Assembly: GCA_029942545.1 (NCBI GenBank)
Contig: GCA_029942545.1_4114.3
Reading direction: 5' to 3' (one strand)
Length of the DNA: 32,788 bases
From: a phage
Part shown: one piece after another, positions 8,142 through 25,245 of the stretch
Numbering within the stretch: the stretch's first letter is position 1
Layout: each line of letters opens with the position of its first letter
Position numbers and translations under genes: made by a program
Notes under the pieces: model-generated
Databases searched by the model: none
Told to the model about the DNA's origin: nothing
Seen by the model: only the letters and a program-made list of their open reading frames with translations

Positions 8142-9317
8142 TTATTCAGGTAGTACCAATTTCTTCATTGTAACTTGTTGTGTACCTGGACTCTGTTCCT
8201 GAAACATAGACCCGTTACCACACCAGTACACCTCATTAGTCCCCACTAACGCGTATAACACACCAGAACCACCTTGTACTGAAAATGCATTAACATCTGG
8301 TGCAACATCCATATCCTCATATTGTACCTGGTGGTAATAAGATCTTTCTGATGCAGTAGTAACAGGCCAACCAAGAGGAACACCACTACCACATGTATAA
8401 AGTTTACCATTCTGTGTCATTGCCATTATAAAATAATTCAAACTGTGATTGTTCATCGACCCAGCATCTGGTATAATACCACTAATTTCGGGAGTAGCAC
8501 TAAATGGACTCATTGTAACCTTCGTGTCTCCATACCCAATTCCTAAACAATAATCAGTGTTTATCCCAGCAGTATATACTCTAATATTACCCTTATTCGA
8601 TGTAAGTACTGAAGTCGTCAAATTAGTACATGAAATACCAATAACTGTTCCAGATATATCAGTACTTACTGTAAATGTGGATAGTTTAGATGCACTTGTA
8701 CCTAGGTTATAACTTGCGTTATTACCACATCTGTAATATTGACCATTTTTAACATAATGTAAAGCACCACCAAAGTGTGTACCAGCAATCATAGTAACAC
8801 CAGTATCAATCTTAATCGGTGTCGCTTTTGCACCAGAAACACCCAGTTCACCTCCAGTATTACTACCTATCCCGTATAAATCACCATTGCTTAACATAAT
8901 TAATAAAGTACCATTTGAAGCGACAGTCTCAGTAGAAGCTATATCTTGAACTGTAGTAAGGCTTGGTATTGTAGACAATATTGATGTAATATTTGTCCAT
9001 CCTGGAACAGGCGATTTGACCACACCAAGGTATCCCATTTGTCCTGCTAAGTAAAATTCTCCTTCAGTCGTAAGTATAATGGTCCCTGCGGATAAACACC
9101 AAACATTAGCAACTTTATATGGACACTGTATCCATCCATTTTGTAAATACGCAGTACTATCATTTCCTAGCCTATATTGTGCACCATTACCACGTAGATA
9201 TAAATTACCACTATCGAACAACATACCCACATGTGTTGTAGATGTAGCAATCTTCAGTACACCCGAAGGTGCTGGTTTAACATTCCCGTACTTAACCATT
9301 CTTGCAAAAGGTAACAT
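8142..9317 (-). CDS. RCC1-like beta-propeller repeat protein with MLPFARMVKYGN leader
   Basis: ORF track; RCC1-type Gly-rich blades; own upstream cassette. Confidence 0.85.
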   Translation of the reverse strand: MLPFARMVKYGNVKPAPSGVLKIATSTTHVGMLFDSGNLYLRGNGAQYRLGNDSTAYLQNGWIQCPYKVANVWCLSAGTIILTTEGEFYLAGQMGYLGVVKSPVPGWTNITSILSTIPSLTTVQDIASTETVASNGTLLIMLSNGDLYGIGSNTGGELGVSGAKATPIKIDTGVTMIAGTHFGGALHYVKNGQYYRCGNNASYNLGTSASKLSTFTVSTDISGTVIGISCTNLTTSVLTSNKGNIRVYTAGINTDYCLGIGYGDTKVTMSPFSATPEISGIIPDAGSMNNHSLNYFIMAMTQNGKLYTCGSGVPLGWPVTTASERSYYHQVQYEDMDVAPDVNAFSVQGGSGVLYALVGTNEVYWCGNGSMFQEQSPGTQQVTMKKLVLPE

Positions 9318-9383
9318 AAATTCCTCCTTTATTCATTATACTATATTTAATACAAAAAGAAATGCCAGTACTTGAGTACTGGC
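9318..9383 (-). promoter_or_regulatory. terminator-promoter-RBS cassette
   Basis: GCCAGTACT-caag-AGTACTGGC hairpin plus T-run, TATAAT, AAGGAGG, ATG; near-identical to the other cassettes. Confidence 0.65.
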
Positions 9384-9389
9384 TTTATG

Positions 9390-10541
9390 TCAATAAACAT
9401 CCCAAGGTAATGGTGTCTTTCTAAACCCATACCTAGTTGCGTTCTGCCCATCTCCGGCAATGTATCTACCGGTCCCACACTGATATAATTCAGTACTGCT
9501 ACATATCGCACCACCAATAGTACCACTACACCACTGTGTTATATTAGAATATAATATTGGTAAATCACTACATTTGGTATATAATGCAACAGTGGCAGCC
9601 CCGCTCGGACCACCAAACACACTTCGGTTCGAACCCGTGTAATATATGCCATCTGGACTCATAAATGCAGATGTATAAGTTGTACTGCAATCCACTGGAC
9701 TTCTTATATTATTAAGATCGCTTGGGTATGCTCTAGCACCATATGTGTATACATTACCAGCAGTAGTAATACCATTACCTAACTGACCATCATTTTGTCC
9801 ACCACATGTAACCAACGATGCAGTACCGGAAACAATTGCAGTAGCATTATACGAAGTACCTATAGCAATAGAAGCACCCGCCCTTTGGGATGGGGTAGGA
9901 ACTGCGGCTGCGTTCCCCTGACCTAATTCACCATTGACATTTCTTCCCCATCCATATACCGAGGTGGTATCTAATTGACATAGTATTGTACCATAACTAA
10001 ACGTATATCGTATATCTTTCACAGCCGATGGTAAACCACTAACTTTAGTTGCAACACTAATAACTCCAGAAACACCAGTAACTCCAGCGTTTGCGTTCAT
10101 ATTACGTCCATATGCGTATAAAGAACCATCAGCAGTTTTAATATGCATCATGCCATCTGTGCAATATAATGCATCGATGCTATCCACTACAACCGCTCCC
10201 ATACTAGACGTTATATCGTTCCACCCAAGCGTTGTAGTACTAGAAATTAAGTTATTTCCGGCGTAAAGTATTCTATTATCATTTGTAACAACTACAGTAT
10301 AATTGGTAGTAACGCCAATTAATCTAACATTCTCATGTATCTTAGACCACATTCCTATTGAATTTGTGTTAGCGTCCAGAAATCCCAACTGACCAGCGGT
10401 ATTATATCCAATACCCCACACATCACCTTCACTGTCCAATAACACTTCATGTGAAAAGCCAATCTTAAAATCTTTTATTGTAGGAACTACCGGAACTGGT
10501 GCAATATTCCCGTACTTAACCATTCTTCCAAAAGGTAACAT
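9390..10541 (-). CDS. RCC1-like beta-propeller repeat protein with MLPFGRMVKYGNIAP leader
   Basis: ORF track 9390..10607; start moved to the MLPF ATG (10541), which has AAGGAGGG SD; the longer ORF begins at an in-frame ATG inside the TATAATGAATAAGGAGG promoter/RBS; motifs WGWGRNVNGELGQGN, CGGQNDGQLGNG. Confidence 0.85.
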   Translation of the reverse strand: MLPFGRMVKYGNIAPVPVVPTIKDFKIGFSHEVLLDSEGDVWGIGYNTAGQLGFLDANTNSIGMWSKIHENVRLIGVTTNYTVVVTNDNRILYAGNNLISSTTTLGWNDITSSMGAVVVDSIDALYCTDGMMHIKTADGSLYAYGRNMNANAGVTGVSGVISVATKVSGLPSAVKDIRYTFSYGTILCQLDTTSVYGWGRNVNGELGQGNAAAVPTPSQRAGASIAIGTSYNATAIVSGTASLVTCGGQNDGQLGNGITTAGNVYTYGARAYPSDLNNIRSPVDCSTTYTSAFMSPDGIYYTGSNRSVFGGPSGAATVALYTKCSDLPILYSNITQWCSGTIGGAICSSTELYQCGTGRYIAGDGQNATRYGFRKTPLPWDVY

Positions 10542-10605
10542 AATTCCCTCCTTATTCATTATACTATATTTAATACAAATAAGAAAGCCAGTATCAAGTA
10601 CTGGC
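10542..10605 (-). promoter_or_regulatory. terminator-promoter-RBS cassette
   Basis: Same cassette; hairpin begins a few nt after the stop of 10613..11776. Confidence 0.65.
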
Positions 10606-10612
10606 ATTCTTT

Positions 10613-11776
10613 TTAAAATGGTGAATCTATTACAAATACTAAGCTATTAATACCACCATATGTGACATCAGCCCCAGTACTATATACAAAATTACCATCA
10701 GTTATATAAGTACGGTTATACCCACCTGACATTTGTGATTTACTATAATCAAAACCATCAGGTACGATTGCTTTGGTATATACTAATGCGTTAGTAGATG
10801 TACCAACACCTAACATACCAGCTTGTGTTGATTGGTTGTAGCCACAACAATATATACCATCTGTTGTAGCAATAACTTGGTTATAATATGAAGTATTATG
10901 GGCCATACTGAGTACATCACCTGGTGGCATTAGGGAAGCAGTTTGAACAGCAAATGCTCTTATATCAGTACTATTCACTCCATCTGCCTGTGCACCAAAT
11001 CTTTTCGCCCCACCATTGGCAATTATGGTTTTTCCATTTGGATCAGTACCAATAGCCATCGCCATTGAATTGTTATTATTTACATAGTACTCGATATTAA
11101 TTACACTCCTTAGACTCGTAGGAGCACTAGTGTATACTGTATATAGAGAAGTACCACTAGTGCTAATTGCATTGACACGGCCTGTATAGTATAACCAACC
11201 GTTAGCAGTAACATAACCATGCATTAGATTACTTGCAAACAATTTAAATGGTAATTGGTCTTCTTCAGTAGAGACTGTGCTCTGGACGAATTTAGTATTA
11301 ACGTTGTTAGTTGTTGTCCCATTACCTAACTGACCTTCTGCCCCTGCCCCAGTACTCCATATTGTTCGATCTGAAAGTAATACACTTGTAGTCTGATTAC
11401 TAACTGCCATATCTAATATTGGTAATGTTAATGTATTGAATGTTGGCATAGCAGAAGTCCACACTGATACGGCTGCCCCTGTCATACCAACAGTAGTTGA
11501 CGAACCACTGTACCATATTTCATTGTTGAATTTCTTAATAACCAAAGAAGTGGTACTTAACCAAAAATCTTCAACACCAGAAGTACTTAACGTCCATGTA
11601 GTAACGGTTTCTTTGTGACCTAAACCCAAAAGACCATTTGAATTCTGACCACGTACATATAAATCCCCACTGCTTGTTAAAACTGCAACGTTGTAGTTAT
11701 TGGCGAGTATTTTTTTAAATTTCGGTGGTGCTGGTGCTATATTCCCGTACTTAACCATTCTTGCAAAAGGTAACAT
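10613..11776 (-). CDS. RCC1-like beta-propeller repeat protein with MLPFARMVKYGNIAP leader
   Basis: ORF track; motif GAGAEGQLGNGTT. Confidence 0.85.
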   Translation of the reverse strand: MLPFARMVKYGNIAPAPPKFKKILANNYNVAVLTSSGDLYVRGQNSNGLLGLGHKETVTTWTLSTSGVEDFWLSTTSLVIKKFNNEIWYSGSSTTVGMTGAAVSVWTSAMPTFNTLTLPILDMAVSNQTTSVLLSDRTIWSTGAGAEGQLGNGTTTNNVNTKFVQSTVSTEEDQLPFKLFASNLMHGYVTANGWLYYTGRVNAISTSGTSLYTVYTSAPTSLRSVINIEYYVNNNNSMAMAIGTDPNGKTIIANGGAKRFGAQADGVNSTDIRAFAVQTASLMPPGDVLSMAHNTSYYNQVIATTDGIYCCGYNQSTQAGMLGVGTSTNALVYTKAIVPDGFDYSKSQMSGGYNRTYITDGNFVYSTGADVTYGGINSLVFVIDSPF

Positions 11777-11841
11777 AATTCCCTCCTTTATTCATTATAC
11801 TATATTTAATACAAAAAGAAATGCCAGTATCAAGTACTGGC
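11777..11841 (-). promoter_or_regulatory. terminator-promoter-RBS cassette
   Basis: Same cassette (hairpin GCCAGTACTTGATACTGGC, TATAATGAATAAAGGAGGG). Confidence 0.65.
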
Positions 11842-11847
11842 TTTAAT

Positions 11848-12996
11848 TCATTGTATAAATGACATATCAACTTCGGTATATCTTGTAGTGTACTGCCCAG
11901 AACTTCCACCCATTACTAGATTGGAAAAACCAGTATAAAATAACTTACCTTCATCTGTGAGAATCAAACTACCGATGTTATTCAGTACTAAACTGTAAGA
12001 ACTATTAAAATTTTCATAAGACTTGGTATAATAGAACTGATTTGTAAGATTACCAACACCCAATTGCCCACCAGTGTTAACCCCAGTTGCAAATATTGTA
12101 GTCCCAAATCTGAGAATATGTGAAGCCATATTACCAACACAACAGTATATATTCTGTACATCCGAATTCAATAAAGTTGGTGTTGTGTATTGCTTAAGTG
12201 TTGTGCCTGTGCCGAATTCATTACCATATGATAGTCCATATTGTGTACCACAAGCGTACAATTTATTATCATCTTTAATAAAAAATGTACTCTGATAACT
12301 TACATCGACATCTATAACATTAGTCTGTATTCTAACAACTCCAGTACTAGCAGTTTGATTGCCTGTCCCTAACTGATAGTAAGTGTTAATACCACAACCC
12401 CATAATGTATTATCTTCTTTTAGGTATATGTTACCAACAGCTTTTTTTACCGATGATATGGCTTCAATCTTAACAAAGGCGTTAAATGAATTTGTATTTG
12501 TGCCATTACCAAAAGATGATCTGGTTGATGTGCTGTTTGTTCCGCAGCAATATAAAGTACCATCAGTTGTTATCAAATTCACTTTAAGATCACTGTAACT
12601 ACTCATGTATTTTATATCAGAAACATTAATACCACTGGATGTTATCCATGAAGTACAATCTGTCCACGTGTTATAATATGCACCTGAACCAGAAAACGCA
12701 CTCGGACTTCCAGTTATAAACACTTTTCCAGTACCGTCTTCTTCATATAATTGACAACCACTACTGTTATTTTCCAAAAGGACTCTTTTAACATTAGTCG
12801 CACTAAGAATAAATTTACTCGACGAAACACCAGTTCCAGTACCCTGACTGACTGCCGCTGATGCATACAAATTTTTCGTGTATGTATCATGAAAATACAT
12901 AGCACTACCGCCGGAATATATTTTAAAACGTGTACTAGGATCAGGCGGGTTAGGTGCAATATTCCCGTACTTAATCATTCTAACAAAAGGTAACAT
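11848..12996 (-). CDS. RCC1-like beta-propeller repeat protein with MLPFVRMIKYGNIAP leader
   Basis: ORF track 11848..13014, start moved to MLPF ATG; motifs CGINTYYQLGTGNQT, GVNTGGQLGVGN; close paralog of 15137..16285. Confidence 0.85.
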   Translation of the reverse strand: MLPFVRMIKYGNIAPNPPDPSTRFKIYSGGSAMYFHDTYTKNLYASAAVSQGTGTGVSSSKFILSATNVKRVLLENNSSGCQLYEEDGTGKVFITGSPSAFSGSGAYYNTWTDCTSWITSSGINVSDIKYMSSYSDLKVNLITTDGTLYCCGTNSTSTRSSFGNGTNTNSFNAFVKIEAISSVKKAVGNIYLKEDNTLWGCGINTYYQLGTGNQTASTGVVRIQTNVIDVDVSYQSTFFIKDDNKLYACGTQYGLSYGNEFGTGTTLKQYTTPTLLNSDVQNIYCCVGNMASHILRFGTTIFATGVNTGGQLGVGNLTNQFYYTKSYENFNSSYSLVLNNIGSLILTDEGKLFYTGFSNLVMGGSSGQYTTRYTEVDMSFIQ

Positions 12997-13060
12997 ATTT
13001 CCCTCCTTATTCATTATACTATATTTAATACAAATAAGAATGCTAGTATCAAGTACTGGC
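12997..13060 (-). promoter_or_regulatory. terminator-promoter-RBS cassette
   Basis: Same cassette; hairpin variant GCCAGTACTTGATACTAGC. Confidence 0.6.
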
Positions 13061-13067
13061 CTATATT

Positions 13068-13805
13068 TTAGACTGAATTGTTAGGATAATATCTCCCACG
13101 TCCCCATATTATTCGCACAGCACCACCACCAGCAGCCGTATAAGAAAAATTATCCCATATACTACCACCACCACCATACATCTTACCAGCACCACCACTA
13201 CCAGCACCACCATTATATGAACCATCGTATCTACCGCCAATACCATTAGCACCTTGAACAATGATACCAGTACCACCACCCGTACCAATGAACGAGGTAT
13301 TATAGAATGCACCACCACCACCGCCGCCGCCAGCACCATTTTCACCAGTGATTGCATCTCCGTTACCACCTTTACCAGTGTAGCCACCAGCACCACCACC
13401 AATGACTGCACCACCACTTACACCAGCGTTGCCCCCATTACCACCACCATCATTAATAGCGTTAGCAGCTTTCCCACCTAGTCCACCAACCCTATATTCA
13501 CCAGTGAAGCTAACACATAGTTTTTCAGTTCCACGATATAAACCGTTTTCAACTGCTGTAGTAGTGTTGGGATGTGTAAGAGAAACACTTAAGTACTCAC
13601 CACTAGTAACCGGAATATTATTACGCCACGATAAGCCGCCGCCAGCACCACGTTGACCACCCGGCGAAATAACACATACTGATATTTCGGTAACGCCAGC
13701 AGGAACTGTAAATTGTGTTGTTCCTATTGTCGTGATTAATTGTTCACCATGTGGCTTATATTCAATTTCATTCCCGTACTTAATCATTCTTCCAAAAGGT
13801 AACAT
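13068..13805 (-). CDS. glycine-rich protein carrying the same MLPFGRMIKYGN leader
   Basis: ORF track; same N-terminal tag and upstream cassette as the RCC1 genes, but the body is FTVPAGVTEISVCVISPGG followed by long GGxGG low-complexity tracts; not RCC1. Confidence 0.8.
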   Translation of the reverse strand: MLPFGRMIKYGNEIEYKPHGEQLITTIGTTQFTVPAGVTEISVCVISPGGQRGAGGGLSWRNNIPVTSGEYLSVSLTHPNTTTAVENGLYRGTEKLCVSFTGEYRVGGLGGKAANAINDGGGNGGNAGVSGGAVIGGGAGGYTGKGGNGDAITGENGAGGGGGGGAFYNTSFIGTGGGTGIIVQGANGIGGRYDGSYNGGAGSGGAGKMYGGGGSIWDNFSYTAAGGGAVRIIWGRGRYYPNNSV

Positions 13806-13870
13806 AATTCCCTCCTTTATTCATTATAATATATTTAATACAAAAAGAAAAGCCAGTACTCAGTACTGGC
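13806..13870 (-). promoter_or_regulatory. terminator-promoter-RBS cassette
   Basis: Same cassette; perfect palindrome GCCAGTACT-g-AGTACTGGC. Confidence 0.65.
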
Positions 13871-13877
13871 TATTATA

Positions 13878-15065
13878 TTATAATTGTCGGGGTGTATCTA
13901 GTACATATCTAGTTGTACTAGGACCACCATCATCATAAGTTCCGGTTGAATATATATTTTTCATATCAGTTAGAAATGTACGATATGAACCTCTATATAT
14001 TTTTATTTTATCATACATAGAATATGTTATTTGTGTAGGCATTGGACATGCAGTAAACTTACCAACAGTTGCACTAGTACCAATACCCAATGAACCAGCA
14101 TAACTACTGGCATTTAAACCAGTTGCATATACACCAGTACTCGTAATTAGTATACTAGATTGTGGTGGGTATCCAGTATGAATTGAATACAAAGTACCGG
14201 GTGGTAACGTAGTACTGTTATTTCCTAAAACTCCATTAACAGAGCTAGATGTAGTGTTATTTCCCCATGCCCCATTATTAGCTAACCCACCGACAAGGAA
14301 CTGACGTGCTCCTGTATTTGGATTTTCAACTAAAGCACTTACTGCACCAGTTGAGCATCCTGTGTATTGTAACGTTTTTGTGTATGTTGTATTTGGTTGA
14401 TATAAAGTATATTCATTATATGAAGTCCATGTAGTCGCGGAACTTATACCGGATGTAACACCACCAATATATAAATTATTTTGTTTATCAAACAACAATA
14501 CACAGTTATTTGTTGACTGTATTTGTGCAATATCAACATTAGGTGTGACCGCTTTTACAAATGAACCATCGGTTATTTCATAAGTAGTTCCTGTACCATC
14601 TGCGAATTGTCTAGCACTGTTCCACCCTGTACTCCATATTGTATTATTATCCATTAACACAGTAAACCACGTAGTACCTCCATACATCTGTTTAATTGAA
14701 GTACTTGAACTTTGTGTGTACAAATTTTGAATATATTGGTTATAACTTAAAAACGTAGTAGTACTAGTTGATAAACCAATATGACTACCATATCCACAGT
14801 AATAATAATTTGAGTCATTGTCTTTTACTAATAAAGTTCCTTGTGTAAGCCAGCAATCGTTAACGTTTTCTCTAATTAATGTCCATGATTTTAATGCAGT
14901 GTTGTTTCCTCTACCGAATTTCCCAAAACTATTATTCCCACGTGCATATAGTTGACCATCCGTATACAGAACCACAACATCTAAATCAGTTGGGATTATT
15001 TTCTTAATTTGAAGTGGTACTGGGGCAATATTCCCATAATTCATCATTCTTGCAAAAGGTAACAT
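13878..15065 (-). CDS. RCC1-like beta-propeller repeat protein with MLPFARMMNYGNIAP leader
   Basis: ORF track; Gly/Ser/Thr/Asn-rich blades. Confidence 0.8.
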   Translation of the reverse strand: MLPFARMMNYGNIAPVPLQIKKIIPTDLDVVVLYTDGQLYARGNNSFGKFGRGNNTALKSWTLIRENVNDCWLTQGTLLVKDNDSNYYYCGYGSHIGLSTSTTTFLSYNQYIQNLYTQSSSTSIKQMYGGTTWFTVLMDNNTIWSTGWNSARQFADGTGTTYEITDGSFVKAVTPNVDIAQIQSTNNCVLLFDKQNNLYIGGVTSGISSATTWTSYNEYTLYQPNTTYTKTLQYTGCSTGAVSALVENPNTGARQFLVGGLANNGAWGNNTTSSSVNGVLGNNSTTLPPGTLYSIHTGYPPQSSILITSTGVYATGLNASSYAGSLGIGTSATVGKFTACPMPTQITYSMYDKIKIYRGSYRTFLTDMKNIYSTGTYDDGGPSTTRYVLDTPRQL

Positions 15066-15130
15066 AAATTCCTCCTTTATTCATTATACTATATTTAATA
15101 CAAATAAGAAAGCCAGTACAGAGTACTGGC
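15066..15130 (-). promoter_or_regulatory. terminator-promoter-RBS cassette
   Basis: Same cassette; hairpin GCCAGTACTCTGTACTGGC. Confidence 0.65.
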
Positions 15131-15136
15131 ATTAAA

Positions 15137-16285
15137 TCATTGTATAAATGACATATCAACTTCTGTATAACTAAGAATGTTTTGTCCAGCAATTCCCCCC
15201 ATTACTACCATAGCATACCCACAATAATATAATTGCTCAGTGTCCGTAAGTATAAGTGAACCAGATGGAGTGCGTACCAAATTACACGAACTATTAAACG
15301 AAGTATACGAAGGAGTATATGAGTACTGATTAATATTATTACCAACACCTAATTGACCAAATCCATTCGACCCAGATGCGTATAGAACTTCATCACCTTT
15401 AGCTATATGTGATGCCATGTTACTAACACACGTATATAGAGTATAAACTCCTGAACTCAATAATGTCGGAGTTTTGTATTGTATATCGGTAGATGAAGAA
15501 GTACCACCTGTGCCAAATTCGTTCCCGTATTGTGCACCGAACTGTTTACCACAAGCGTACAAATTATTATCCGATTTAATAAAAAATGTACTCTGATAAC
15601 TTACATCAAAATCTATAACATCTGAAGCAATCATCGTCACCCCAGTAATAGAAGTTTGATTACCTGTACCTAACTGATAGTAATAGTTAAAACCACAACC
15701 CCATAAAGTATTATCTTCTTTTAGGTATATGTTACCAACTGCCTTTTTAACCGAAGTTATAGTATCTACCCTTTTGAATGTGTTAAAAGAATTAATGTTT
15801 GTACCATCACCAAATGATGATAGGTTCGAGTTATTGTTAACTCCACAACAATACAACGTACCATCGTTTGTTATCAAATTCACCTTCATATCATTAAAAC
15901 TACTCATGTATTTTATATCAGAAACATTAATACCACCTGATGTTATCCACGTAGTACAGTCCGTCCACAAAGTTTTTGTATCAGTTACACCAGTGAATGC
16001 CTTCGTGTTACCAGTGATAAAAACTTTTCCAGTACCTTTCTCTTCATACATTTGACAACTACTACTGTTATCTTCCAATAGAACTCGTTTAACATTCTCT
16101 GCACAAAGAATAAATTTACTCGATGCTACACCTGTACCAGTACCCCAATTCGTCGCAGAAGATGCATACAACTTATTAGTATAAGTATCATGGAGATACA
16201 TAGAATCACTTGAATATATTTTAAAACGCCTATCCTTACCAGGGGCAATATTCCCATAATTCATCATTCTTGCAAAAGGTAACAT
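15137..16285 (-). CDS. RCC1-like beta-propeller repeat protein with MLPFARMMNYGNIAP leader
   Basis: ORF track; motif SGSNGFGQLGVGNN; long stretches near-identical to 11848..12996. Confidence 0.85.
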   Translation of the reverse strand: MLPFARMMNYGNIAPGKDRRFKIYSSDSMYLHDTYTNKLYASSATNWGTGTGVASSKFILCAENVKRVLLEDNSSSCQMYEEKGTGKVFITGNTKAFTGVTDTKTLWTDCTTWITSGGINVSDIKYMSSFNDMKVNLITNDGTLYCCGVNNNSNLSSFGDGTNINSFNTFKRVDTITSVKKAVGNIYLKEDNTLWGCGFNYYYQLGTGNQTSITGVTMIASDVIDFDVSYQSTFFIKSDNNLYACGKQFGAQYGNEFGTGGTSSSTDIQYKTPTLLSSGVYTLYTCVSNMASHIAKGDEVLYASGSNGFGQLGVGNNINQYSYTPSYTSFNSSCNLVRTPSGSLILTDTEQLYYCGYAMVVMGGIAGQNILSYTEVDMSFIQ

Positions 16286-16350
16286 ATTTCCCTCCTTTAT
16301 TCATTATACTATATTTAATACAAATAAGAAAGCCAGTACAGTGTACTGGC
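16286..16350 (-). promoter_or_regulatory. terminator-promoter-RBS cassette
   Basis: Same cassette; hairpin GCCAGTACACTGTACTGGC. Confidence 0.65.
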
Positions 16351-16356
16351 ATTATA

Positions 16357-17496
16357 TTATTTCCACGGTAGAAGTGAATCAGGAACCCTTGTTGGTACAG
16401 TAGTTGAAGACATTCCAGTAAGATTGGGTACACCACATGTGTATAAATTATTATATTCGTCAACTAACATCGTATAAGAATAGCTCTTACAAAAACTACT
16501 AAGATTACTACCTTCTAATGCAGTAAGATCCATTTCAGCGAATGATGTTATATACATATCAGTTGTACCAATACCACATTGACCATTTGAATTAAGGCCA
16601 CATGAAAATAACTTATTATTATTATTAATTATACAGGATGGTCCGGTAAGGTTTGTCCCAAGCTCACCCACCAACTCCACTTCTCCTTGGAATGATAAAT
16701 TTGGAATTAATGTACTCATTGGGGCTACTGACCTATTTCCTGTACCTGCTTGTCCATAGTCGTTAATAGATGCAACTTTAACATTACCATCATTAAGAAA
16801 TATATAAGAAGTTTCATTTGTATTGACTGCTTTAATTGCATTACTAATCGAAGTATCTTGTGTAAATGTGAGCAAGTTTTGTGTCGTCGTTCCTGATACA
16901 AACGTTCTACCTGCATACCAATATGAACCATCATTTAGTACTAATCCAGTACTATATATTGCACAACCAGCACTGATAACATTTTCTATTGTACTATAGG
17001 TGAATCGTGAAACGCTTGAAGTTGATCCATTCCCAAAAACACCACCAGTACCAGCACCACAGTAGAACCACTTTCCATTTTTTAAAAATACACGCATACA
17101 CGAAGATATCACAACACTATCAATATCATCTGCACTGACACCGAAATCAGTAAAGTTCTGTGTTATATCAACCCAAACGCCGTTAGTGTTTGAAGATAGT
17201 ATTGGAATAACAGTACGTCTACCAGTGTACCAAATAGTACCATCTTTCTTTATAGCAATTGTTCCTTGTACCCCACCCCAATATCGTGTAACATTTGAGT
17301 TGACAAGAGTCCATTCAGTTGAAGAGTCCAATGAACCATTACCACTTTGTCCATATGCTGAAGAACCAAACCAATATAGATTGCCATTTGTGTGTAAATA
17401 AAATTTGGCATCAGCAGAACATTGTAACCTGTTTTTAGGTAGAATCAGTTCAGGTGCGATATTCCCGTACTTAACCATTCTTGCAAAAGGTAACAT
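16357..17496 (-). CDS. RCC1-like beta-propeller repeat protein with MLPFARMVKYGNIAP leader
   Basis: ORF track; motifs SSAYGQSGNGS, GLNSNGQCGIGTT. Confidence 0.85.
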   Translation of the reverse strand: MLPFARMVKYGNIAPELILPKNRLQCSADAKFYLHTNGNLYWFGSSAYGQSGNGSLDSSTEWTLVNSNVTRYWGGVQGTIAIKKDGTIWYTGRRTVIPILSSNTNGVWVDITQNFTDFGVSADDIDSVVISSCMRVFLKNGKWFYCGAGTGGVFGNGSTSSVSRFTYSTIENVISAGCAIYSTGLVLNDGSYWYAGRTFVSGTTTQNLLTFTQDTSISNAIKAVNTNETSYIFLNDGNVKVASINDYGQAGTGNRSVAPMSTLIPNLSFQGEVELVGELGTNLTGPSCIINNNNKLFSCGLNSNGQCGIGTTDMYITSFAEMDLTALEGSNLSSFCKSYSYTMLVDEYNNLYTCGVPNLTGMSSTTVPTRVPDSLLPWK

Positions 17497-17561
17497 ATTT
17501 CCCTCCTTTATTCATTATACTATATTTAATACAAATAAGAAAGCCAGTACTCTGTACTGGC
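17497..17561 (-). promoter_or_regulatory. terminator-promoter-RBS cassette
   Basis: Same cassette; hairpin GCCAGTACAGAGTACTGGC. Confidence 0.65.
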
Positions 17562-17567
17562 ATTATG

Positions 17568-18677
17568 TTATTTTGGTAAATCAATTTTAGTAAAGACTGC
17601 AACATCCTCGATTGCACCTGGAATGGCGTAATACGATCCAGTACTATACACATCTCCATTTTTGGTTAATATCGATGTCAAACCATCACTAAAAAGAACA
17701 TCCCTAATCTCACTAACTTCAACGGGTAATTGTAAATTGGTAGCACTATATATAGCACCAGTTTGAGAATTGTTTAATCCCAAACCACGGTTCGCCCCAA
17801 CACCCTTCTGATATGTACTAGTAATTACCATTTGTGTAGCAGTATTTAAGGCAGGTGAATTCGTCATAAACAACGGAGAACTATTAGGCAAAGTACTTAC
17901 AGGAACGGCACGGAATGTAGTCGTGCCTGAACTAAGAAAGTTTGGAGTTTGACCACATACGAAATATGATGTACCATTATAGTAATTTAATGCATTACCA
18001 CCAATGGCTGCATCGATTACACCAGAACTACGCAATCCCCAAGTGTTAATTTGTGTTTGGTTCCCCGTACCATGCTGCCCACTACTATTCCATCCAGAAC
18101 TATATAGCTTATTATCTAATGTAAGATACATACTATCATTCGCATTGGTCATTACTTTACGAACGTTCGTAGCACATTGAGTTAATGTGTAAATTGATGA
18201 GGAACCAATACCCAAAGAACCACGATATCCATTATCTCCTGCACCATAGAGTACTGAATTAGTGCTAAGTACAAATATTAAACCATTTGTACATACAATA
18301 TTAGCAATTTCACTTACTGGTATAGCATTGGTAAACCAATTAGTTCTTTCAACTAATACAGTACTGTAAGAAGTAGTTGTAGAAGATGAGAACCAGTACG
18401 TTTGACCTGATGTCCATATCGTATTATCATTTTTAATAATAACAAGTGTACGATCACCCACGAAAAAATTAGAAACATCTGCACTTACTAATGTCCACGA
18501 AGACACCGTGTTGGTATTACCATTTCCAGATTCACCACCTTGATTTCTACCTATGTAATATAAATCATGTGAATCAGTCAATAAGAATTGGCCTTGGGTA
18601 GAAGCACCAACTTTAATTATTTTTTTAGGACCAGGGACAATATTTCCATACCTAATCATTCTTCCAAAAGGTAACAT
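17568..18677 (-). CDS. RCC1-like repeat protein with MLPFGRMIRYGNIVP leader
   Basis: ORF track 17568..18698, start moved to MLPF ATG; GGAGGG SD overlaps stop of upstream gene (coupled); motif GWNSSGQHGTGNQT. Confidence 0.8.
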   Translation of the reverse strand: MLPFGRMIRYGNIVPGPKKIIKVGASTQGQFLLTDSHDLYYIGRNQGGESGNGNTNTVSSWTLVSADVSNFFVGDRTLVIIKNDNTIWTSGQTYWFSSSTTTSYSTVLVERTNWFTNAIPVSEIANIVCTNGLIFVLSTNSVLYGAGDNGYRGSLGIGSSSIYTLTQCATNVRKVMTNANDSMYLTLDNKLYSSGWNSSGQHGTGNQTQINTWGLRSSGVIDAAIGGNALNYYNGTSYFVCGQTPNFLSSGTTTFRAVPVSTLPNSSPLFMTNSPALNTATQMVITSTYQKGVGANRGLGLNNSQTGAIYSATNLQLPVEVSEIRDVLFSDGLTSILTKNGDVYSTGSYYAIPGAIEDVAVFTKIDLPK

Positions 18678-18685
18678 ATTCCCTC

Positions 18686-19888
18686 CTATTGTTGCCATAA
18701 CTGCGTTGGCATTAATGTTAGTGTAGTAATACTATAAGTACCATTAGGTAATCTACCACCATTTCCATTCCAGCCACCACATGCATATAATTTATAATCT
18801 TTAGTAATTATTATGGTTCTGCTCCAATCTTTAGATGCCATAAGAACATTGTCATAACCACCACTTATTGCACTAAGATTAAAAATATTCCAAGTTCTAA
18901 CTAATGTATTAGTTCCATTACCTTCTTGACCATATGAGTTAGCACCACTACTTCTAACATATGGTGCGTATTGTGCCATAGGTGCACCAATTGATGCATT
19001 TCCCATATTACTTGGACAAATAAAAGTACTGTACTTACTTACATCAACCGTGACCGATGTGTTCCTAATTGGTGTTAGCTGATTTACCGATGTAGTCGTA
19101 CCATTACCAGCTTGTCCAGTACTGTTAACCCCGCTATAATATACAGACCCACCAGTAGTAAACCACCAAGTAACATCGTATGTAGTACTAATATGTTCTA
19201 CATTACTAATCACGAATTTGTTCAAATATACAACAGAACTACCACCACATCCACTTTCACCAAAGTTATCCTTACCACAAAACCATGCATCTTTATTTGA
19301 TTTGATATAGTGCGTTCCTTGTAATGAACATGCCATATGTGTAACTTCACCCATATTAGTCATAACTGTGAGTGTAGGGATGGAATTTTTATTACCAGAG
19401 CCACATTCACCATTAGTATTTCTTCCACACGCAATTACTCTACCATCGGTTAATAATATTCTAGTACTTTCACCTATATATACACTCTTGATCATATTAG
19501 CCATAACACCTATTTTATTAAATGCAACAGTAACATCAGTCCATGTTGTCAAATAACCATTAACAGGTGTTGCATCTCCATAATCAGAAAATGCAGCCAC
19601 AGACCCAGTGTAGTATATTTTATTATCCAAATCAATCATCAATGAACCTTGAACACCAAGCCAAAAGGCTGCACAGTTCCTTGCAAGTACTGTAAATGAC
19701 GAAACTGCTGCTGAATTCCCAAGACCAAATTGGTAAAAGTTATTACTACCATAACCATATAAAGTATTAGTTGGGTTATGGAGATACATACAGTTTGTAT
19801 AATGTTGTTGTAAAACATCTGAGAACTCTACAGGTTCTGGACCTGGTGCAATATTTGCGTACTTAACCATTCTTCCAAAAGGTAACAT
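18686..19888 (-). CDS. RCC1-like repeat protein with MLPFGRMVKYANIAP leader (first gene of array)
   Basis: ORF track 18686..19906, start moved to MLPF ATG; motifs CGRNTNGECGSGN, SGVNSTGQAGNGTT. Confidence 0.8.
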   Translation of the reverse strand: MLPFGRMVKYANIAPGPEPVEFSDVLQQHYTNCMYLHNPTNTLYGYGSNNFYQFGLGNSAAVSSFTVLARNCAAFWLGVQGSLMIDLDNKIYYTGSVAAFSDYGDATPVNGYLTTWTDVTVAFNKIGVMANMIKSVYIGESTRILLTDGRVIACGRNTNGECGSGNKNSIPTLTVMTNMGEVTHMACSLQGTHYIKSNKDAWFCGKDNFGESGCGGSSVVYLNKFVISNVEHISTTYDVTWWFTTGGSVYYSGVNSTGQAGNGTTTSVNQLTPIRNTSVTVDVSKYSTFICPSNMGNASIGAPMAQYAPYVRSSGANSYGQEGNGTNTLVRTWNIFNLSAISGGYDNVLMASKDWSRTIIITKDYKLYACGGWNGNGGRLPNGTYSITTLTLMPTQLWQQ

Positions 19889-19936
19889 ATTTCCCTCCTT
19901 ATTCATTATATCATATTTACCCCATAAAGAAAACCC
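19889..19936 (-). promoter_or_regulatory. promoter/RBS of first array gene (variant, no hairpin)
   Basis: Minus strand GATATAATGAATAAGGAGGGAAAT then ATG; shares a divergent intergenic region with the plus-strand promoter at 19937. Confidence 0.5.
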
Positions 19937-19990: not shown

Positions 19991-20218
19991 ATGACAAATA
20001 CTCTTAAGTACTACCTCAATACTCTAAATGAACTAGAGTACGGGGAATTTCTCTCGGATAGTTCGTGGCTAATTGAGCTAAAAAATTATAATAGTCCAGG
20101 ATGCACCCTTATGATGAACAATGCAATTGATACCCTCATTGTGAGTATTTTACACAGCAACATCTGCGGGGATAGCAATAAACAATTATCAAAAATCTTA
20201 GTACTGCTATCTATATGA
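19991..20218 (+). CDS. small protein, ~60-aa paralog family member
   Basis: ORF track; AAGGAG SD; family features (N-terminal YY, central C-rich motif, hydrophobic C-terminus). Confidence 0.7.
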   Translation: MTNTLKYYLNTLNELEYGEFLSDSSWLIELKNYNSPGCTLMMNNAIDTLIVSILHSNICGDSNKQLSKILVLLSI

Positions 20219-20418
20219 ACATTGAACAGTACTACATCGATGCACTACCAACAAAAGGTCTACGAGAAAGCCTACTGTATACACAAAATACTTTTATACA
20301 CTACAAACGTTGTCCTAAACTCCTGAACTCGTACAGGAGTAATATCATAAGAAATGCTTTACAAGGGGCAGAAAGTATGCAATACTATTATATCCTTGCC
20401 CTTTTAATCGAGTACTAA
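20215..20418 (+). CDS. small protein, paralog family member
   Basis: ORF track; 4-nt overlap with upstream gene; motifs MNIEQYYID, ends LALLIEY. Confidence 0.7.
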   Translation: MNIEQYYIDALPTKGLRESLLYTQNTFIHYKRCPKLLNSYRSNIIRNALQGAESMQYYYILALLIEY

Positions 20419-20419
20419 T

Positions 20420-20629
20420 ATGAATACTGAACATAAAGAATTCTACACCAAATACCTTAGCAACGAAGAACAATTGTTTCTAAGGAGTGTATCACCTGTA
20501 AGTACCAATACTCACTTCGGTAGAGATTGCTTTAATAATTGTATACGTAGTACTCTAGAAGCAATCGAATGCAATAACAAAAATATTATGTACTCAGGTT
20601 TAATAGGACTAATCTACTTCTATGAATAA
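20420..20629 (+). CDS. small protein, paralog family member
   Basis: ORF track; starts MNTEHKEFYTKYL; central FNNCIRS. Confidence 0.7.
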   Translation: MNTEHKEFYTKYLSNEEQLFLRSVSPVSTNTHFGRDCFNNCIRSTLEAIECNNKNIMYSGLIGLIYFYE

Positions 20630-20816
20630 TCATAAAGATTTCTATGGTAGTAAACTACACAAGCAAGACCAGCTATCATTCTCTTTAGCACCACCTATGA
20701 GAAAGGATAATCTATATTACAATTACGATTTCAGGATGGCGACACGTTATGCAATAGAACATCAGTTCCCTGAAACTAAGTACCGCTCTATCCTGAACCT
20801 CATCTTTAAGTTCTAA
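20622..20816 (+). CDS. small protein, paralog family member
   Basis: ORF track; starts MNNHKDFY; 8-nt overlap with upstream gene. Confidence 0.65.
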   Translation: MNNHKDFYGSKLHKQDQLSFSLAPPMRKDNLYYNYDFRMATRYAIEHQFPETKYRSILNLIFKF

Positions 20817-20826
20817 AAGGTGCTAT

Positions 20827-21036
20827 ATGAAAACTACAAACATTCATCAGTACTACATAGATATTCTCCCTAAAGATGTACAGTTCATACTTAAACAAGA
20901 ATTCAGTACTTTAAAAAAACTAAAAAGAACCGCACCTTCAGCAATCATCCAGCACCAAAAAAATGTCGTGCGTAATATACTACAAGGTACACCAGGGACC
21001 GAGTACTTTAATATAGTAAGGCTAATTACATTATAA
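20827..21036 (+). CDS. small protein, paralog family member
   Basis: ORF track; starts MKTTNIHQYYIDILP; resembles 20215..20418. Confidence 0.7.
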   Translation: MKTTNIHQYYIDILPKDVQFILKQEFSTLKKLKRTAPSAIIQHQKNVVRNILQGTPGTEYFNIVRLITL

Positions 21037-21221
21037 TGAATCATATAAGCTACTACTACCAACAACTATCCGACAGAGACAAGTACAGTCACAACTCCCA
21101 TGTGTGGTACTACAAACGCGGCAGTATAAGAGACAAACAACATTACTTCTGTATTTCTATTAAAGAAGCACTGACAACTAAGTACACGTACCGAGCAGTA
21201 ATTAAACTTATTGAAATGTAA
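21036..21221 (+). CDS. small protein, paralog family member
   Basis: ORF track; ends KYTYRAVIKLIEM, matching the next gene's KYTYREVMKLIAI. Confidence 0.7.
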   Translation: MNHISYYYQQLSDRDKYSHNSHVWYYKRGSIRDKQHYFCISIKEALTTKYTYRAVIKLIEM

Positions 21222-21229
21222 GGAAGAAA

Positions 21230-21412
21230 ATGAACATAGAATTCTATTTAACTAAACTACAACACGCCGAAAGATTCAACTTCAATAAGTTCAATATTTT
21301 CTACAATTGCGGGAACAAAAAAGATAAACACACCTTCCTATATGTCGTCACAAGAGATGCACAAAACGAAAAGTACACATACAGAGAAGTAATGAAACTA
21401 ATCGCTATTTAA
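21230..21412 (+). CDS. small protein, paralog family member
   Basis: ORF track; close paralog of 21036..21221. Confidence 0.7.
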   Translation: MNIEFYLTKLQHAERFNFNKFNIFYNCGNKKDKHTFLYVVTRDAQNEKYTYREVMKLIAI

Positions 21413-21420
21413 GGAATACT

Positions 21421-21600
21421 ATGCAACAATTCTATAGAGAACGTATAACCATAAAAGACCGTTTCATGTACGACACCTTCGTGAAGTACTACAAACTAGG
21501 AACAAAAAGTACTAAAAATATTAATCTCAATAGCTGCATTTATGCTGTACTAACACAAGATAATCCCTACAGGGAAATCCTCGCCCTGGCATCTATATAA
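21421..21600 (+). CDS. small protein (59 aa), probable paralog family member
   Basis: Not in ORF track (below 60 aa); hand-called ATG about 21421 after AAGGA SD, stop TAA about 21598-21600; fills the only gap in the array; starts MQQFYRERI. Confidence 0.5.
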   Translation: MQQFYRERITIKDRFMYDTFVKYYKLGTKSTKNINLNSCIYAVLTQDNPYREILALASI

Positions 21601-21610
21601 AGGAAACCAA

Positions 21611-22282
21611 ATGAAACTTAATGCACACAGCAAACAATACCTTAAGCACTTTAAGTACCTCAATAGTATTCAGGCAGAATCAGTTACATCTGCATATACG
21701 TATCACCCGAATGTACTAAAGAAACGAAATAAAAAGGAAAAATCCAGTACAAATGGAGTTAACGTATCAAAGAACCTTGAATTGTACATGAAGAAAAATA
21801 ATATAGCTGTTCATTATATGAATATCTATAATACTGATTTAAAAGTATTGAGTACTAATACGAGCACAAAGGTACTAAAGAACGCATCCTTCATCATCAA
21901 TATGCAGTTGGATAATACCCCGTGCACTTTAATGCTATACTTCGGGAATACATACTTCTTCGGGAATTGTAACACCTCCCACGATGTCAATACAGCACAA
22001 TTCCAAATGGGTGGCATATACTCTACTGATGCAGAAAAAGTACACGAGAATATGCACTTCTGGCAAGCACAACGTACAGAAGAAACTGATACAGTACTAC
22101 AATTCCTCAAAGAACTAGAACACAAAGAACTACAGGAAGAAGAACTATTCATGTACAGTACTGTAATCGATAATCCAGTACTCTATAAAAACGCGTACAA
22201 TCTGACAAAACATGTACAGGAACTTATCAGTACTAATAAGAAAATGCATCACCTCATTACGTATATTACAAACTATGTATAA
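21611..22282 (+). CDS. hypothetical protein (223 aa) embedded in the small-ORF array
   Basis: ORF track; AAGGAAACC SD-like; no family motifs. Confidence 0.7.
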   Translation: MKLNAHSKQYLKHFKYLNSIQAESVTSAYTYHPNVLKKRNKKEKSSTNGVNVSKNLELYMKKNNIAVHYMNIYNTDLKVLSTNTSTKVLKNASFIINMQLDNTPCTLMLYFGNTYFFGNCNTSHDVNTAQFQMGGIYSTDAEKVHENMHFWQAQRTEETDTVLQFLKELEHKELQEEELFMYSTVIDNPVLYKNAYNLTKHVQELISTNKKMHHLITYITNYV

Positions 22283-22457
22283 AGAATACTACAGGGAACA
22301 TCTCCCAATGCATCTCCAGCACCATATACCAACAGAACCAATAGGAATAAAAGATCACGCAAAGATAATGTTTCAACAATGTACTAAGTACACGCTCATA
22401 TACGATGATAATCCATATATGCTGTACTACGTAGTAATGTTAACATTCAGGTACTAA
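22275..22457 (+). CDS. small protein, paralog family member
   Basis: ORF track 22212..22457; start moved to internal ATG (MYKEYYREHLP) that matches family N-termini and overlaps the upstream stop. Confidence 0.7.
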   Translation: MYKEYYREHLPMHLQHHIPTEPIGIKDHAKIMFQQCTKYTLIYDDNPYMLYYVVMLTFRY

Positions 22458-22458
22458 C

Positions 22459-22644
22459 ATGTATAAAGAATACTACATAGAGAAACTCCCAATGTATCTC
22501 CAACACCTTGTACCAACAGAACCATTGGGTATAGAAAAAAACTACGAAAAAGACTACTTCATTCAGTGCACTAAATCCTCGATATATATTGAAGACTATA
22601 ATCGAGTACTGTATCACATCCTTTTACTAATATATAGGTACTAA
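22459..22644 (+). CDS. small protein, paralog family member
   Basis: ORF track; MYKEYYIEKLP ... LLLIYRY; 1-nt intergenic gap. Confidence 0.75.
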   Translation: MYKEYYIEKLPMYLQHLVPTEPLGIEKNYEKDYFIQCTKSSIYIEDYNRVLYHILLLIYRY

Positions 22645-22645
22645 T

Positions 22646-22828
22646 ATGCACAAAGAATACTACACACAATTTCTCCCCAGCATTTTTGAACACTACGCCA
22701 GATACAAAGTCCCCCTGGATAACGATTTGGCAGTACTGGGATTCAATAACTGCATAGAACGAAGTATAGAAAATAGTAGTAGTTATGACCAGCTATATAA
22801 CACTATCCTACTTATATTCAGGTACTAA
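22646..22828 (+). CDS. small protein, paralog family member
   Basis: ORF track; MHKEYYTQFLP ... ILLIFRY. Confidence 0.75.
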   Translation: MHKEYYTQFLPSIFEHYARYKVPLDNDLAVLGFNNCIERSIENSSSYDQLYNTILLIFRY

Positions 22829-22829
22829 C

Positions 22830-23018
22830 ATGCATAAAGAATACTACACAAAATATTTCCCAATGTACCTCAGAACTAATCTATTAGATAAACCTCGCGG
22901 TATCAATGCACAAAATGATAAAGTGTATTTTACTATGTGCACTAAAGCATGTATACTAGATTTTGACAGCTATCATCGAGTACTGTATCATACCCTGTAC
23001 CTAGCTTTCGTATTCTAA
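22830..23018 (+). CDS. small protein, paralog family member
   Basis: ORF track 22785..23018; start moved to ATG 22830 (MHKEYYTKYFP) matching family. Confidence 0.7.
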   Translation: MHKEYYTKYFPMYLRTNLLDKPRGINAQNDKVYFTMCTKACILDFDSYHRVLYHTLYLAFVF

Positions 23019-23027
23019 GAGAACAAT

Positions 23028-23213
23028 ATGCATAAAGAATTCTACTTAAGCCATCTGGATCTAAACTCCCAAATGCTTATACCACTAATCCCAATAGATA
23101 TCAAGGATAAGAAAAATACCGAACAATTCATTTACCATACACAGTGTGCGATCACCCCAAATTACATTCCATATGAATTGTACTACATTCTCGCCCTAAT
23201 ATATAGGTACTAA
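23028..23213 (+). CDS. small protein, paralog family member
   Basis: ORF track; MHKEFYLSHL ... LALIYRY. Confidence 0.75.
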   Translation: MHKEFYLSHLDLNSQMLIPLIPIDIKDKKNTEQFIYHTQCAITPNYIPYELYYILALIYRY

Positions 23214-23214
23214 T

Positions 23215-23400
23215 ATGCATAGAGAATACTACACACAATTTGTTAAAGGGAACTACAAACATGCCGTACCCAGAACCCCTTTAAATTCTCATGACCCAAG
23301 TACTATATTCTTGTTTAATGACGCAATACGTACAGTACTCAATACTAAAGATGAAGATGTGCAGTACGTATTCTTACTATTACTTATATACAGACACTAA
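23215..23400 (+). CDS. small protein, paralog family member
   Basis: ORF track; MHREYYTQFV ... LLLIYRH. Confidence 0.75.
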   Translation: MHREYYTQFVKGNYKHAVPRTPLNSHDPSTIFLFNDAIRTVLNTKDEDVQYVFLLLLIYRH

Positions 23401-23405
23401 CTAAT

Positions 23406-23588
23406 ATGAATAAAGAACATAAAGAATTCTATATAAGAAAACTAACATTCGTCCCCGTAAGAATATATAAAGAATGCGACCCAAGATTATACCTATGGCA
23501 CTTCAATGAGTGCATAAAAGATTCTATATACCCTAAGAACTATAAAGAACAATTGTGCTCAGTACTAACACTAGTACTATCATATTAA
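23406..23588 (+). CDS. small protein, paralog family member
   Basis: ORF track; MNKEHKEFYIRKL; central FNECIKDSIY. Confidence 0.7.
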   Translation: MNKEHKEFYIRKLTFVPVRIYKECDPRLYLWHFNECIKDSIYPKNYKEQLCSVLTLVLSY

Positions 23589-23603
23589 TTAATAGAGAAT
23601 ACT

Positions 23604-24451: not shown

Positions 24452-24457
24452 GTTCTA

Positions 24458-25182: not shown

Positions 25183-25245
25183 AAAATATTATAGCAGTAC
25201 TGAAAAAATAAAGCAATACCCTAAACGCAAAAAGTTTTAATTAAT

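Follow-up and report, generated by a model that had tools for sequence, protein, structure and literature searches.

A glycine-rich protein with a short N-terminal tag is a candidate virion adhesin head of Asteriusvirus jumbo phages

The window analysed in this study is a stretch of 32,788 nucleotides of phage DNA (contig GCA_029942545.1_4114.3 of GenBank assembly GCA_029942545.1), and our subject is an open reading frame (ORF) in it which encodes a glycine-rich protein and belongs to a tandem array of genes sharing the same N-terminal peptide, the tag MLPFGRMIKYGN. In our favoured reading the protein serves the virion as an accessory adhesin head, which its tag docks to the particle, and it is an interchangeable unit of an array of such heads; we give this reading a probability of about 0.6. 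The protein would consist of two modules. Residues 1-12, perhaps up to 18, would be a docking peptide to a common particle site of Rak2-like jumbo phages. Residues ~19-245, predicted as a tumour necrosis factor (TNF)-like beta-sandwich extending into a polyglycine-II (PGII) type bundle, would be a ligand-binding, adhesin-type head, and the host surface is the most plausible place for its ligand. Alternative tag-bearing heads would be supplied by the array, which are otherwise RCC1-like propellers. Homologous recombination at a repeat of ~120 nucleotides (nt), composed of a hairpin, a promoter-like box, a ribosome-binding site (RBS) and the tag codons, would add, remove and swap heads, and such exchange would account for the presence of the glycine-rich head in no more than about half of the related phage records. 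The features of the gene are as follows.

13068..13805, minus strand: glycine-rich ORF, 245 amino acids, ortholog of gp243 of phage 121Q
13770..13805, minus strand: codons 1-12, the tag MLPFGRMIKYGN, common to 12 ORFs of the window and 11 proteins of Pectobacterium phage CBB
13506..13751, minus strand: residues 19-100, predicted beta-sandwich (TNF-like)
13116..13505, minus strand: residues 101-230, glycine-rich, about 10-12 glycine-rich motifs, read as a PGII bundle
13071..13130, minus strand: residues 226-245, conserved C-terminal strand GGGAVRIIWGRGRYYP, with G227, R230, I232, W233, G234 and P240 nearly invariant and an AlphaFold2 strand at 228-233

The N-terminal tag and its presence in virions

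The tag was defined as M-[LI]-P-F-x-x-x-x-x-Y-[GA]-N at the start codon, with an alignment of 23 tags, and the glycine-rich ORF carries it. The array to which the ORF belongs is the following.

4449..19906, minus strand: whole array, 12 tag-bearing ORFs and one tagless RCC1-like fragment (4449..5345)

All 12 tag-bearing ORFs begin with MLPF[GAV]RM..Y[GA]N. RCC1-like Pfam models matched every ORF of the array other than the glycine-rich one, which is the sole non-propeller member within the window, as the preliminary description of this DNA had stated for a member with the same tag and cassette. Among the 11 propeller paralogs, M1, L2, P3, F4, R6, M7, Y10 and N12 do not vary, and the bodies share only 19-30% identity, so the sharing of tag and cassette is not due to chance. 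The 36 nucleotides of the tag show a mean identity of 91% among paralogs, compared with 42% for the next 36 nt. Structure prediction agreed with the separation of tag and body: in the AlphaFold2 model of the propeller encoded at 13878..15065 (all-beta, predicted TM-score (pTM) 0.79), residues 1-12 lie outside the fold with a predicted local distance difference test (pLDDT) score <50, and the first ten residues of the glycine-rich model have a mean pLDDT of 65. The tag is a separate module. Longer ORF starts with MNKEGNMLPF arise from an in-frame ATG inside the A/T box of the cassette; judged by where the RBS lies, translation probably begins at the methionine of MLPF.

The nearest homolog outside the genus is gp144 (CBB_144) of Pectobacterium phage CBB (Mimasvirus), with 36% identity over the N-terminal 128 residues (E 2e-16). 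It begins with MLPFSPLIVYGN and is located between nrdD and nrdG, outside any propeller array. A tblastn search with this CBB homolog gave few matches, probably from low-complexity masking. In the CBB genome, 11 ORFs have a tag start of the form MLPF....Y[GA]N, and their coordinates agree with the gene table of the CBB paper. Some of the encoded proteins have no Pfam match. Besides CBB_144 they are:

CBB_247: tagged, ConA-like
CBB_536, CBB_537: tagged
CBB_548, CBB_551: tagged, Laminin_G_3
CBB_549, CBB_553: tagged
CBB_550, CBB_552, CBB_554: tagged, Kelch

The list of CBB virion proteins determined by electrospray ionisation tandem mass spectrometry contains CBB_144, 247, 536, 537, 548, 549, 551, 552 and 553 (PMC5259590), which means nine of the 11 tagged ORFs compared with 46 of about 543 others (Fisher p ~2e-8). 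The glycine-rich homolog CBB_144 was found in virions with five peptides and 34% coverage, and three of the virion peptides fall in its glycine-rich core (PMC5259590). Some peptides reach into the tag or close to it: LFEYANVIIPPNYK corresponds to residues 7-20 of CBB_536, YANVIVEYATK to residues 10-20 of CBB_548 and IAPYQILYEMK to residues 14-24 of CBB_144. From these peptides the tag stays on the mature protein, and the glycine-rich homolog is truly in the particle. Virion proteomics, one of the checks proposed in the preliminary description, thus gave a positive result with the homolog from CBB.

CBB retains the tag with different, synonymous codons, and its tag genes are closely packed, with no hairpin-promoter cassette of the kind that precedes most tagged genes of our window. 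It means that the peptide is conserved at the protein level and that the DNA cassette is specific to Asteriusvirus. The preliminary description had argued that the array is defined by tag and cassette and not by the fold. For the tag this holds well, as in CBB it stands on Kelch, Laminin_G_3/ConA-like, glycine-rich and unassigned proteins; the cassette had to be given up as a general defining feature.

The authors of the CBB paper proposed six CBB structural proteins absent from GAP32, a close relative of CBB, as tail-hair candidates (PMC5259590). CBB_144, 247, 536, 537, 551 and 552 are exactly those six proteins, and all six are tagged. Related proteins were also reported from other virions: the virion proteome of phAPEC6 (Asteriusvirus) contains six RCC1 paralogs (gp003, 005, 006, 007, 009 and 010), and the RCC1-like gp001 of GAP32, which starts with MLPFSRIIQYGN, is a virion protein by mass spectrometry. 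We propose in this analysis the grouping "MLPF-tagged virion proteins of Rak2-like jumbo phages". No description of the shared tag, or of its link to virion incorporation, was found in the literature searched, including the Sharanji and fEgEco12 papers and a jumbo-phage review.

A scan of 2.9 million IMG/VR contigs with a degenerate DNA pattern of the tag gave 14 matching stretches. Of these, eleven are on six contigs of ~350-380 kb, belonging to 121Q, CBB, GAP32 and three uncultured relatives, and the other three are on contigs of 20-24 kb, where one ORF is 12 codons long and two encode the same protein of 548 amino acids. The tagged ORFs of the jumbo contigs encode RCC1-like and Kelch proteins, one RCC1 and Kelch fusion, Laminin_G_3/ConA-like proteins and several proteins of ~170-240 amino acids with no Pfam match. 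The fusion protein (667 amino acids) is encoded by an uncultured 355-kb phage (UViG_3300031417_000002, 6413-8416 of the stretch examined, minus strand), with an RCC1-like part at residues 29-269 and a Kelch propeller at residues ~380-590, and four more tagged ORFs stand within 7 kb. The 548-residue protein starts with MLPFYSVKDYAN, was found at 893-2539 and 4385-6031 in the stretches of two contigs of 20-23 kb and has no Pfam match; its agreement with the tag pattern may be due to chance or may reflect that the tag is used in a distant group.

An unannotated relic is present at the head of the tag-gene cluster of CBB, at 355473-355562 of the CBB record (20474-20563 of the stretch examined, minus strand). 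Here ATGTTACCTTTTCCGCAATT (MLPFPQ..) is fused out of frame to the final 22 codons of a gene of the glycine-rich family (GGAVRIIYGDDRSFPNTLTNNQ*), and a TAGTATAAT box and an RBS stand ahead of the relic. Judged by these remains, it looks like a deleted glycine-rich paralog.

Family and predicted structure of the glycine-rich protein

Glycine accounts for 70 of the 245 residues (28.6%), and for 35-55% per 20-residue window across residues ~111-215. The peptides quoted in the preliminary description (MLPFGRMIKYGN, FTVPAGVTEISVCVISPGGQRGAGGGL, GGGGGGGAF and GGNGGNAGVSGGAVIGGGAGGYTGKGGNGDAITG) are all present in the ORF. The description had also compared the protein with a phage and bacterial domain of the form FTVPAGV followed by poly-Gly, and this is a real family: of the 109 homologs in the alignment, 37 match Pfam PF21722 (Gly_rich_2). 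With a profile for which 30 PF21722-positive proteins and no others were used, the ORF scored 157.8 bits over residues 15-243, while 200 shuffles of the ORF reached at most -15.3 bits with the same profile, so the match is not a composition effect. In pairwise comparison by phmmer, two PF21722-annotated homologs (P0037 and P0038) were found with E 3.9e-17 and 1.5e-16. NCBIfam gave no match for the ORF.

A search of 5.8 billion proteins yielded 196 homologs, mostly of 240-300 amino acids and from phage-like contigs. Their alignment shows a fixed motif series from VPxGVT to GAVRIIWGxxRxxP, and the series VPxGVT, GGGLxWxNNIxVxPGE, DGGGNGG, GGGAGGYxGxGG and GAVRIIWGxxRxxP is common with PF21722 proteins. 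Invariant or nearly invariant columns of the family include G120, G137, A138, G140, Y141, G145, R230, I232, W233, G234 and P240. The protein is therefore like PF21722 proteins in its motif series, in similar length and in strong profile and pairwise similarity. When 1.84 billion cluster representatives were searched with a profile, 7,239 members were obtained at E<=1e-3, and many of them are multidomain proteins of 500-5,500 amino acids with 2-13 copies of the domain; unlike these, the present subgroup is a minimal stand-alone protein with a tag of 12 amino acids.

Many members of the family start with MLE[ML]L or MIELL and not with MLPF, and gp19 of Seoulvirus PVP-SE1 is in this group. On contigs of 216 kb and 150 kb such members are single genes beside a muramidase gene or just upstream of terminase/portal genes, not arrays. 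We considered MLE[ML]L as a second shared tag and rejected it, as the 216-kb contig has that start in the glycine-rich gene only.

The AlphaFold2 model of the ORF, made with the alignment of 109 sequences, has a mean pLDDT of 94.7 and a pTM of 0.90. Residues ~100-230 have pLDDT 94-99 and almost no regular structure by DSSP, a pattern which we take to fit PGII bundles in this model. No helix is present before residue 110, and one helix of four residues is at 110-113. Foldseek against predicted viral structures (BFVD) returned 80 matches (E<=1e-3), most of which bear the name "Glycine-rich domain-containing protein". The fold matches of the model are PGII-bundle proteins, not beta-rolls, and Foldseek put the same targets at the top of its ranking. 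The protein had been called low-complexity in the preliminary description, but it is a confidently folded domain with conserved motifs. The RTX-like GGxGxD repeats suggested there were not recovered: the ORF contains zero GGxGxD matches and has no match to the RTX/HemolysinCabind Pfam models, and beta-rolls are not among its fold matches.

A comparable layout is known from the tip of the tail fibre gp24 of cyanophage Pam3 (PDB 7YPX/7YFW), in which, as in the model of our ORF, a TNF-like sandwich is followed by a glycine-rich lattice. In gp24 both of these domains were assigned to host recognition, and an N-terminal helical bundle serves for trimerisation and baseplate docking, with the chaperone gp25 required (PMC9608196). 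The domains of Pam3, of Bxb1 gp33/gp29, of S16 gp38 and of ALK have been grouped as polyproline-II (PPII)/PGII helical bundles (PMC13243192). In mycobacteriophage Bxb1 the tail-tip proteins gp33 ("wing brush") and gp29 (PDB 9D93), and in Salmonella phage S16 the PGII adhesin gp38, are glycine-rich PPII/PGII bundles on the outer side of the phage tail, and the predicted bundle of our protein is similar to them. [quoted passage not shown] The fold and the family of the glycine-rich protein are already known.

Conservation of the gene and recombination at the cassette

The DNA around the gene matches that of jumbo myoviruses which infect Escherichia and form the genus Asteriusvirus (121Q, SP27, G17, phAPEC6 and PBECO4), with 89-99% nucleotide identity. 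The product is 98.8% identical in amino acids to 121Q gp243, annotated as "hypothetical protein". By tblastn, orthologs were present in 18 phage records with 84-99% identity and a single copy in each. The region of 3.5 kb including the neighbouring genes matches 37 records, and about half of them are without the glycine-rich gene, including PBECO4. The ORF was assigned to phrog_4474 (E 2e-69), with function unknown in PHROGs. The dN/dS among the orthologs is 0.3-0.6, on merely 5-25 substitutions, which are too few to inform, and no clustering of variable residues was seen among the orthologs. The ORF is a real, conserved gene.

In the phAPEC6 record MK817115.1 the gene is intact (7325-8059 of the stretch examined) yet unannotated, and gp004 (7716-8018) is an ORF in another frame overlapping it. 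The published virion proteome of phAPEC6 was therefore unable to detect the glycine-rich protein. A metagenome contig (SRR12907740_527, 1238-1858 of the stretch) encodes a glycine-rich variant of 206 amino acids, 39 shorter than the protein of the window, and positions 13319-13403 of the window have no blastn counterpart in it. The variant could be a natural deletion between glycine-codon repeats or an assembly artefact.

The gene is flanked on both sides by a cassette composed of a GCCAGTAC-loop-GTACTGGC hairpin, a T-run, GTATTAAATATA[GT]TATAATGAATAAAGGAGGGAATT and ATG. The cassettes and the neighbouring genes are:

13806..13877, minus strand: upstream cassette, with terminator-like hairpin at 13851-13871 and T-run, TATAAT-containing A/T box, and RBS AAGGAGGG at 13810-13817
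12997..13067, minus strand: downstream cassette, with hairpin at 13042-13060; it ends the glycine-rich gene and serves the next RCC1 gene
13878..15065, minus strand: RCC1-like propeller gene (Pfam RCC1-like), 395 amino acids, directly upstream of the glycine-rich gene and co-inherited with it
11848..12996, minus strand: RCC1-like propeller gene, directly downstream of the glycine-rich gene; its body varies between phages

The full cassette stands before nine of the 12 tagged genes, including the glycine-rich gene, with AAGGAGG a few bases ahead of ATG, and a tenth tagged gene (18686..19906) has a degenerate copy. The record of phage G17 annotates the same hairpins as terminators, and a terminator scan called hairpins with T-run six times compared with 1.4 expected. 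By blastn, a unit of ~120 nt is repeated between the genes of the array with 85-95% identity; it starts at a stop codon and extends ~43 nt into the ORF that follows.

Breakpoints between phages, from seven comparisons, are at window positions 12952/3, 13770 and 15130-15141. With phAPEC6, CMSTMSU, G17, fEgEco12 and SP27 there is a collinear block from 12952/3 to 15130-15141 (90-99% identity), which contains the glycine-rich gene and the upstream propeller gene and is followed by a different propeller body downstream; homology ends ~43 nt inside 11848..12996, at the end of its tag. The homology with PBECO4 runs to position 13770, the last tag codon of the glycine-rich gene, and then a different RCC1 body begins. 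Cassette and tag together thus appear, on these alignments, to be a recombination unit in Asteriusvirus.

This arrangement is similar to the PeSL (promoter-early stem-loop) cassettes of T4-type phages, which are terminator/promoter repeats flanking accessory genes and are recombination points for indels and replacements (PMC2839356, PMC4122927). The repeat here may likewise be a small composite of terminator and promoter, and its breakpoints between phages are at the cassette/tag unit. The difference is that the present repeat enters the coding sequence by ~40 nt and carries a protein tag, that the genes served are structural, and that no sigma-70 -35 element was seen; the promoter activity here is putative.

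Weighing of the proposed function and its alternatives

Phage tail fibres and tailspikes have a conserved N-terminal anchor and a variable head, and RCC1, Kelch and ConA-like heads are ligand-binding folds. The tagged proteins resemble receptor-binding proteins of this type in their constant attachment part and exchangeable binding parts. They differ in that the constant part is only ~12 residues, that it carries at least five unrelated small globular folds, and that up to 12 genes are present per genome. We infer that the glycine-rich protein would be in the virion of this phage, that the tag would be its docking element at a docking site on the particle, that the head would bind the host surface, and that the cassette would act as a late promoter.

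Several points weigh against this function. The presence of tagged proteins, with their tag, in virions comes from the published mass spectrometry of CBB only. Virion presence alone fits an external or an internal location. Twelve residues are very short for an anchor. A profile of the 23 tags gave a single chance-level match among PDB sequences (E 0.38), so no structure shows docking of the tag. The relation to Pam3 gp24 is, from the model, at fold level only and without a sequence match, because the family profile finds no PDB sequence; neither did a search with the single ORF sequence. The Foldseek TM-scores for the top structural targets are low (~0.29). The helical docking bundle and the chaperone gene of Pam3 are both absent from the ORF and its neighbours: the place of the bundle is taken by a tag of 12-18 residues ahead of the sandwich, and both neighbouring genes are RCC1-like. 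The Pfam search proposed in the preliminary description gave no direct match for the ORF at E<=1, PF21722's own model included. A sigma-70 consensus scan did not call the cassette, finding no -35 element, though a TATAAT box is present.

Among the alternatives, the main one is that the tag is a capsid-targeting signal and that tagged proteins are internal head proteins or are ejected, like the internal proteins of T4 or the proposed inner body of phAPEC6. A short N-terminal peptide on unrelated proteins in a plastic array with its own cassettes is indeed similar to the internal-protein locus of T4, detection in virions by mass spectrometry fits an internal location equally well, and the phAPEC6 authors suggested that RCC1-like proteins could organise packaged DNA. 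However, the targeting signal of T4 internal proteins is cleaved, whereas tag residues are retained in mature virion proteins of CBB (peptides 7-20 and 10-20). We also looked in the alignment of 23 tags for a T4-like prohead-protease site and rejected it: there is no conserved Glu, and tag position 9 varies (E, Q, K, N, R, A and V), leaving no conserved protease site. The folds are moreover of lectin or adhesin type, and the glycine-rich head matches external tail-fibre and tail-tip proteins. We therefore disfavour an internal location and regard it as unlikely. The same low chance is given to the possibility that the tag serves assembly, folding or expression, as a chaperone motif or as a translation-initiation region under gene conversion, and that each head attaches by itself. 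Within Asteriusvirus the tag shows no variation even at synonymous sites (TTA CCT TTT AGA AAT) and it lies in the recombining repeat of ~120 nt, so homogenisation at the DNA level explains part of the tag conservation. But CBB keeps the tag as protein with other codons and without the DNA cassette, and separate attachment to the virion by at least five unrelated folds is hard to see, yet nine of 11 tagged proteins are in particles.

In GenBank the array proteins are labelled "DNA condensation" proteins or "hypothetical", and the former annotation is still used in recent genome papers. It came from RCC1-type Pfam and PHROG matches, and under it the array would encode cytoplasmic regulators with the glycine-rich ORF as a passenger. 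We consider this very improbable, since it was based on likeness of fold only, three phages have the proteins in their virions, and the tag is also on Kelch, ConA-like and glycine-rich heads which have no link with chromatin. It is hardly credible at all that we are dealing with a low-complexity frame that is spurious or degenerate, or with a calcium-binding repeat protein of the RTX type. High glycine content and the lack of a direct Pfam or NCBIfam match would be in keeping with this, but the motifs are conserved, the fold is predicted with high confidence, the profile score is far above the shuffles, peptides from the glycine-rich core of the CBB homolog were seen by mass spectrometry, and neither a GGxGxD motif nor an RTX match is present.

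Returning to the tag-docked adhesin head, we tentatively extend it, at somewhat less than even odds, to a multi-head display in which the 12-residue MLPF...YGN is a universal plug. One site or stalk, possibly the hair or whisker fibres of 121Q, phAPEC6 and CBB, would take at least five unrelated folds (RCC1, Kelch, ConA-like, TNF-like/PGII and others), and the tag codons with the cassette would shuffle heads in Asteriusvirus. The hair part of this proposal is favoured because all six CBB structural proteins absent from GAP32 are tagged. Against it, GAP32 also has tagged virion proteins, and the CBB authors leave the whiskers of GAP32 open (PMC5259590).

Other features of the window

The tagless last member of the array (4449..5345) encodes an RCC1-like protein of 298 amino acids with a degenerate cassette upstream (region 4449-5673, minus strand). 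In the annotation of 121Q its counterpart is divided into gp235 and gp234, and this suggests that the paralog is split or decaying. Another member, at 7224-8033 (minus strand), is a short tagged propeller paralog of 269 amino acids compared with ~380-400 in other paralogs; after its stop codon there are ~190 nt of noncoding sequence with no hairpin directly behind.

A second tandem array is present at 19991-23795 (plus strand), divergent from the propeller array, with about 18 small ORFs of 59-81 amino acids. Many of them start with M.KE[FY]Y and end with ..L[IL]Y[RK], and an ORF of 223 amino acids (21611-22282) is among them. This array corresponds to 121Q gp249-265, all annotated as "hypothetical". 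It is followed at 23800-25740 by ~1.9 kb with no ORF of >=60 amino acids. Scans of the window, including this region, found no tRNA genes and no Rfam matches at the gathering threshold.

Implications

The glycine-rich domain and its fold are known; the whole would be a combination of modular receptor-binding proteins with recombining regulatory cassettes. If the proposed function is true, genes now named "DNA condensation" or "hypothetical", of which more than 35 jumbo-phage records have a dozen per genome, would be renamed as modules of the virion surface or as adhesins, and hairy jumbo phages would have a concrete set of candidate proteins for their hair-like appendages. A tag that is sufficient for docking would be a natural handle of 12 residues to display foreign domains on a phage particle. 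The repeat of tag and cassette would show a route by which phages may swap binding heads through homologous recombination inside coding sequence.

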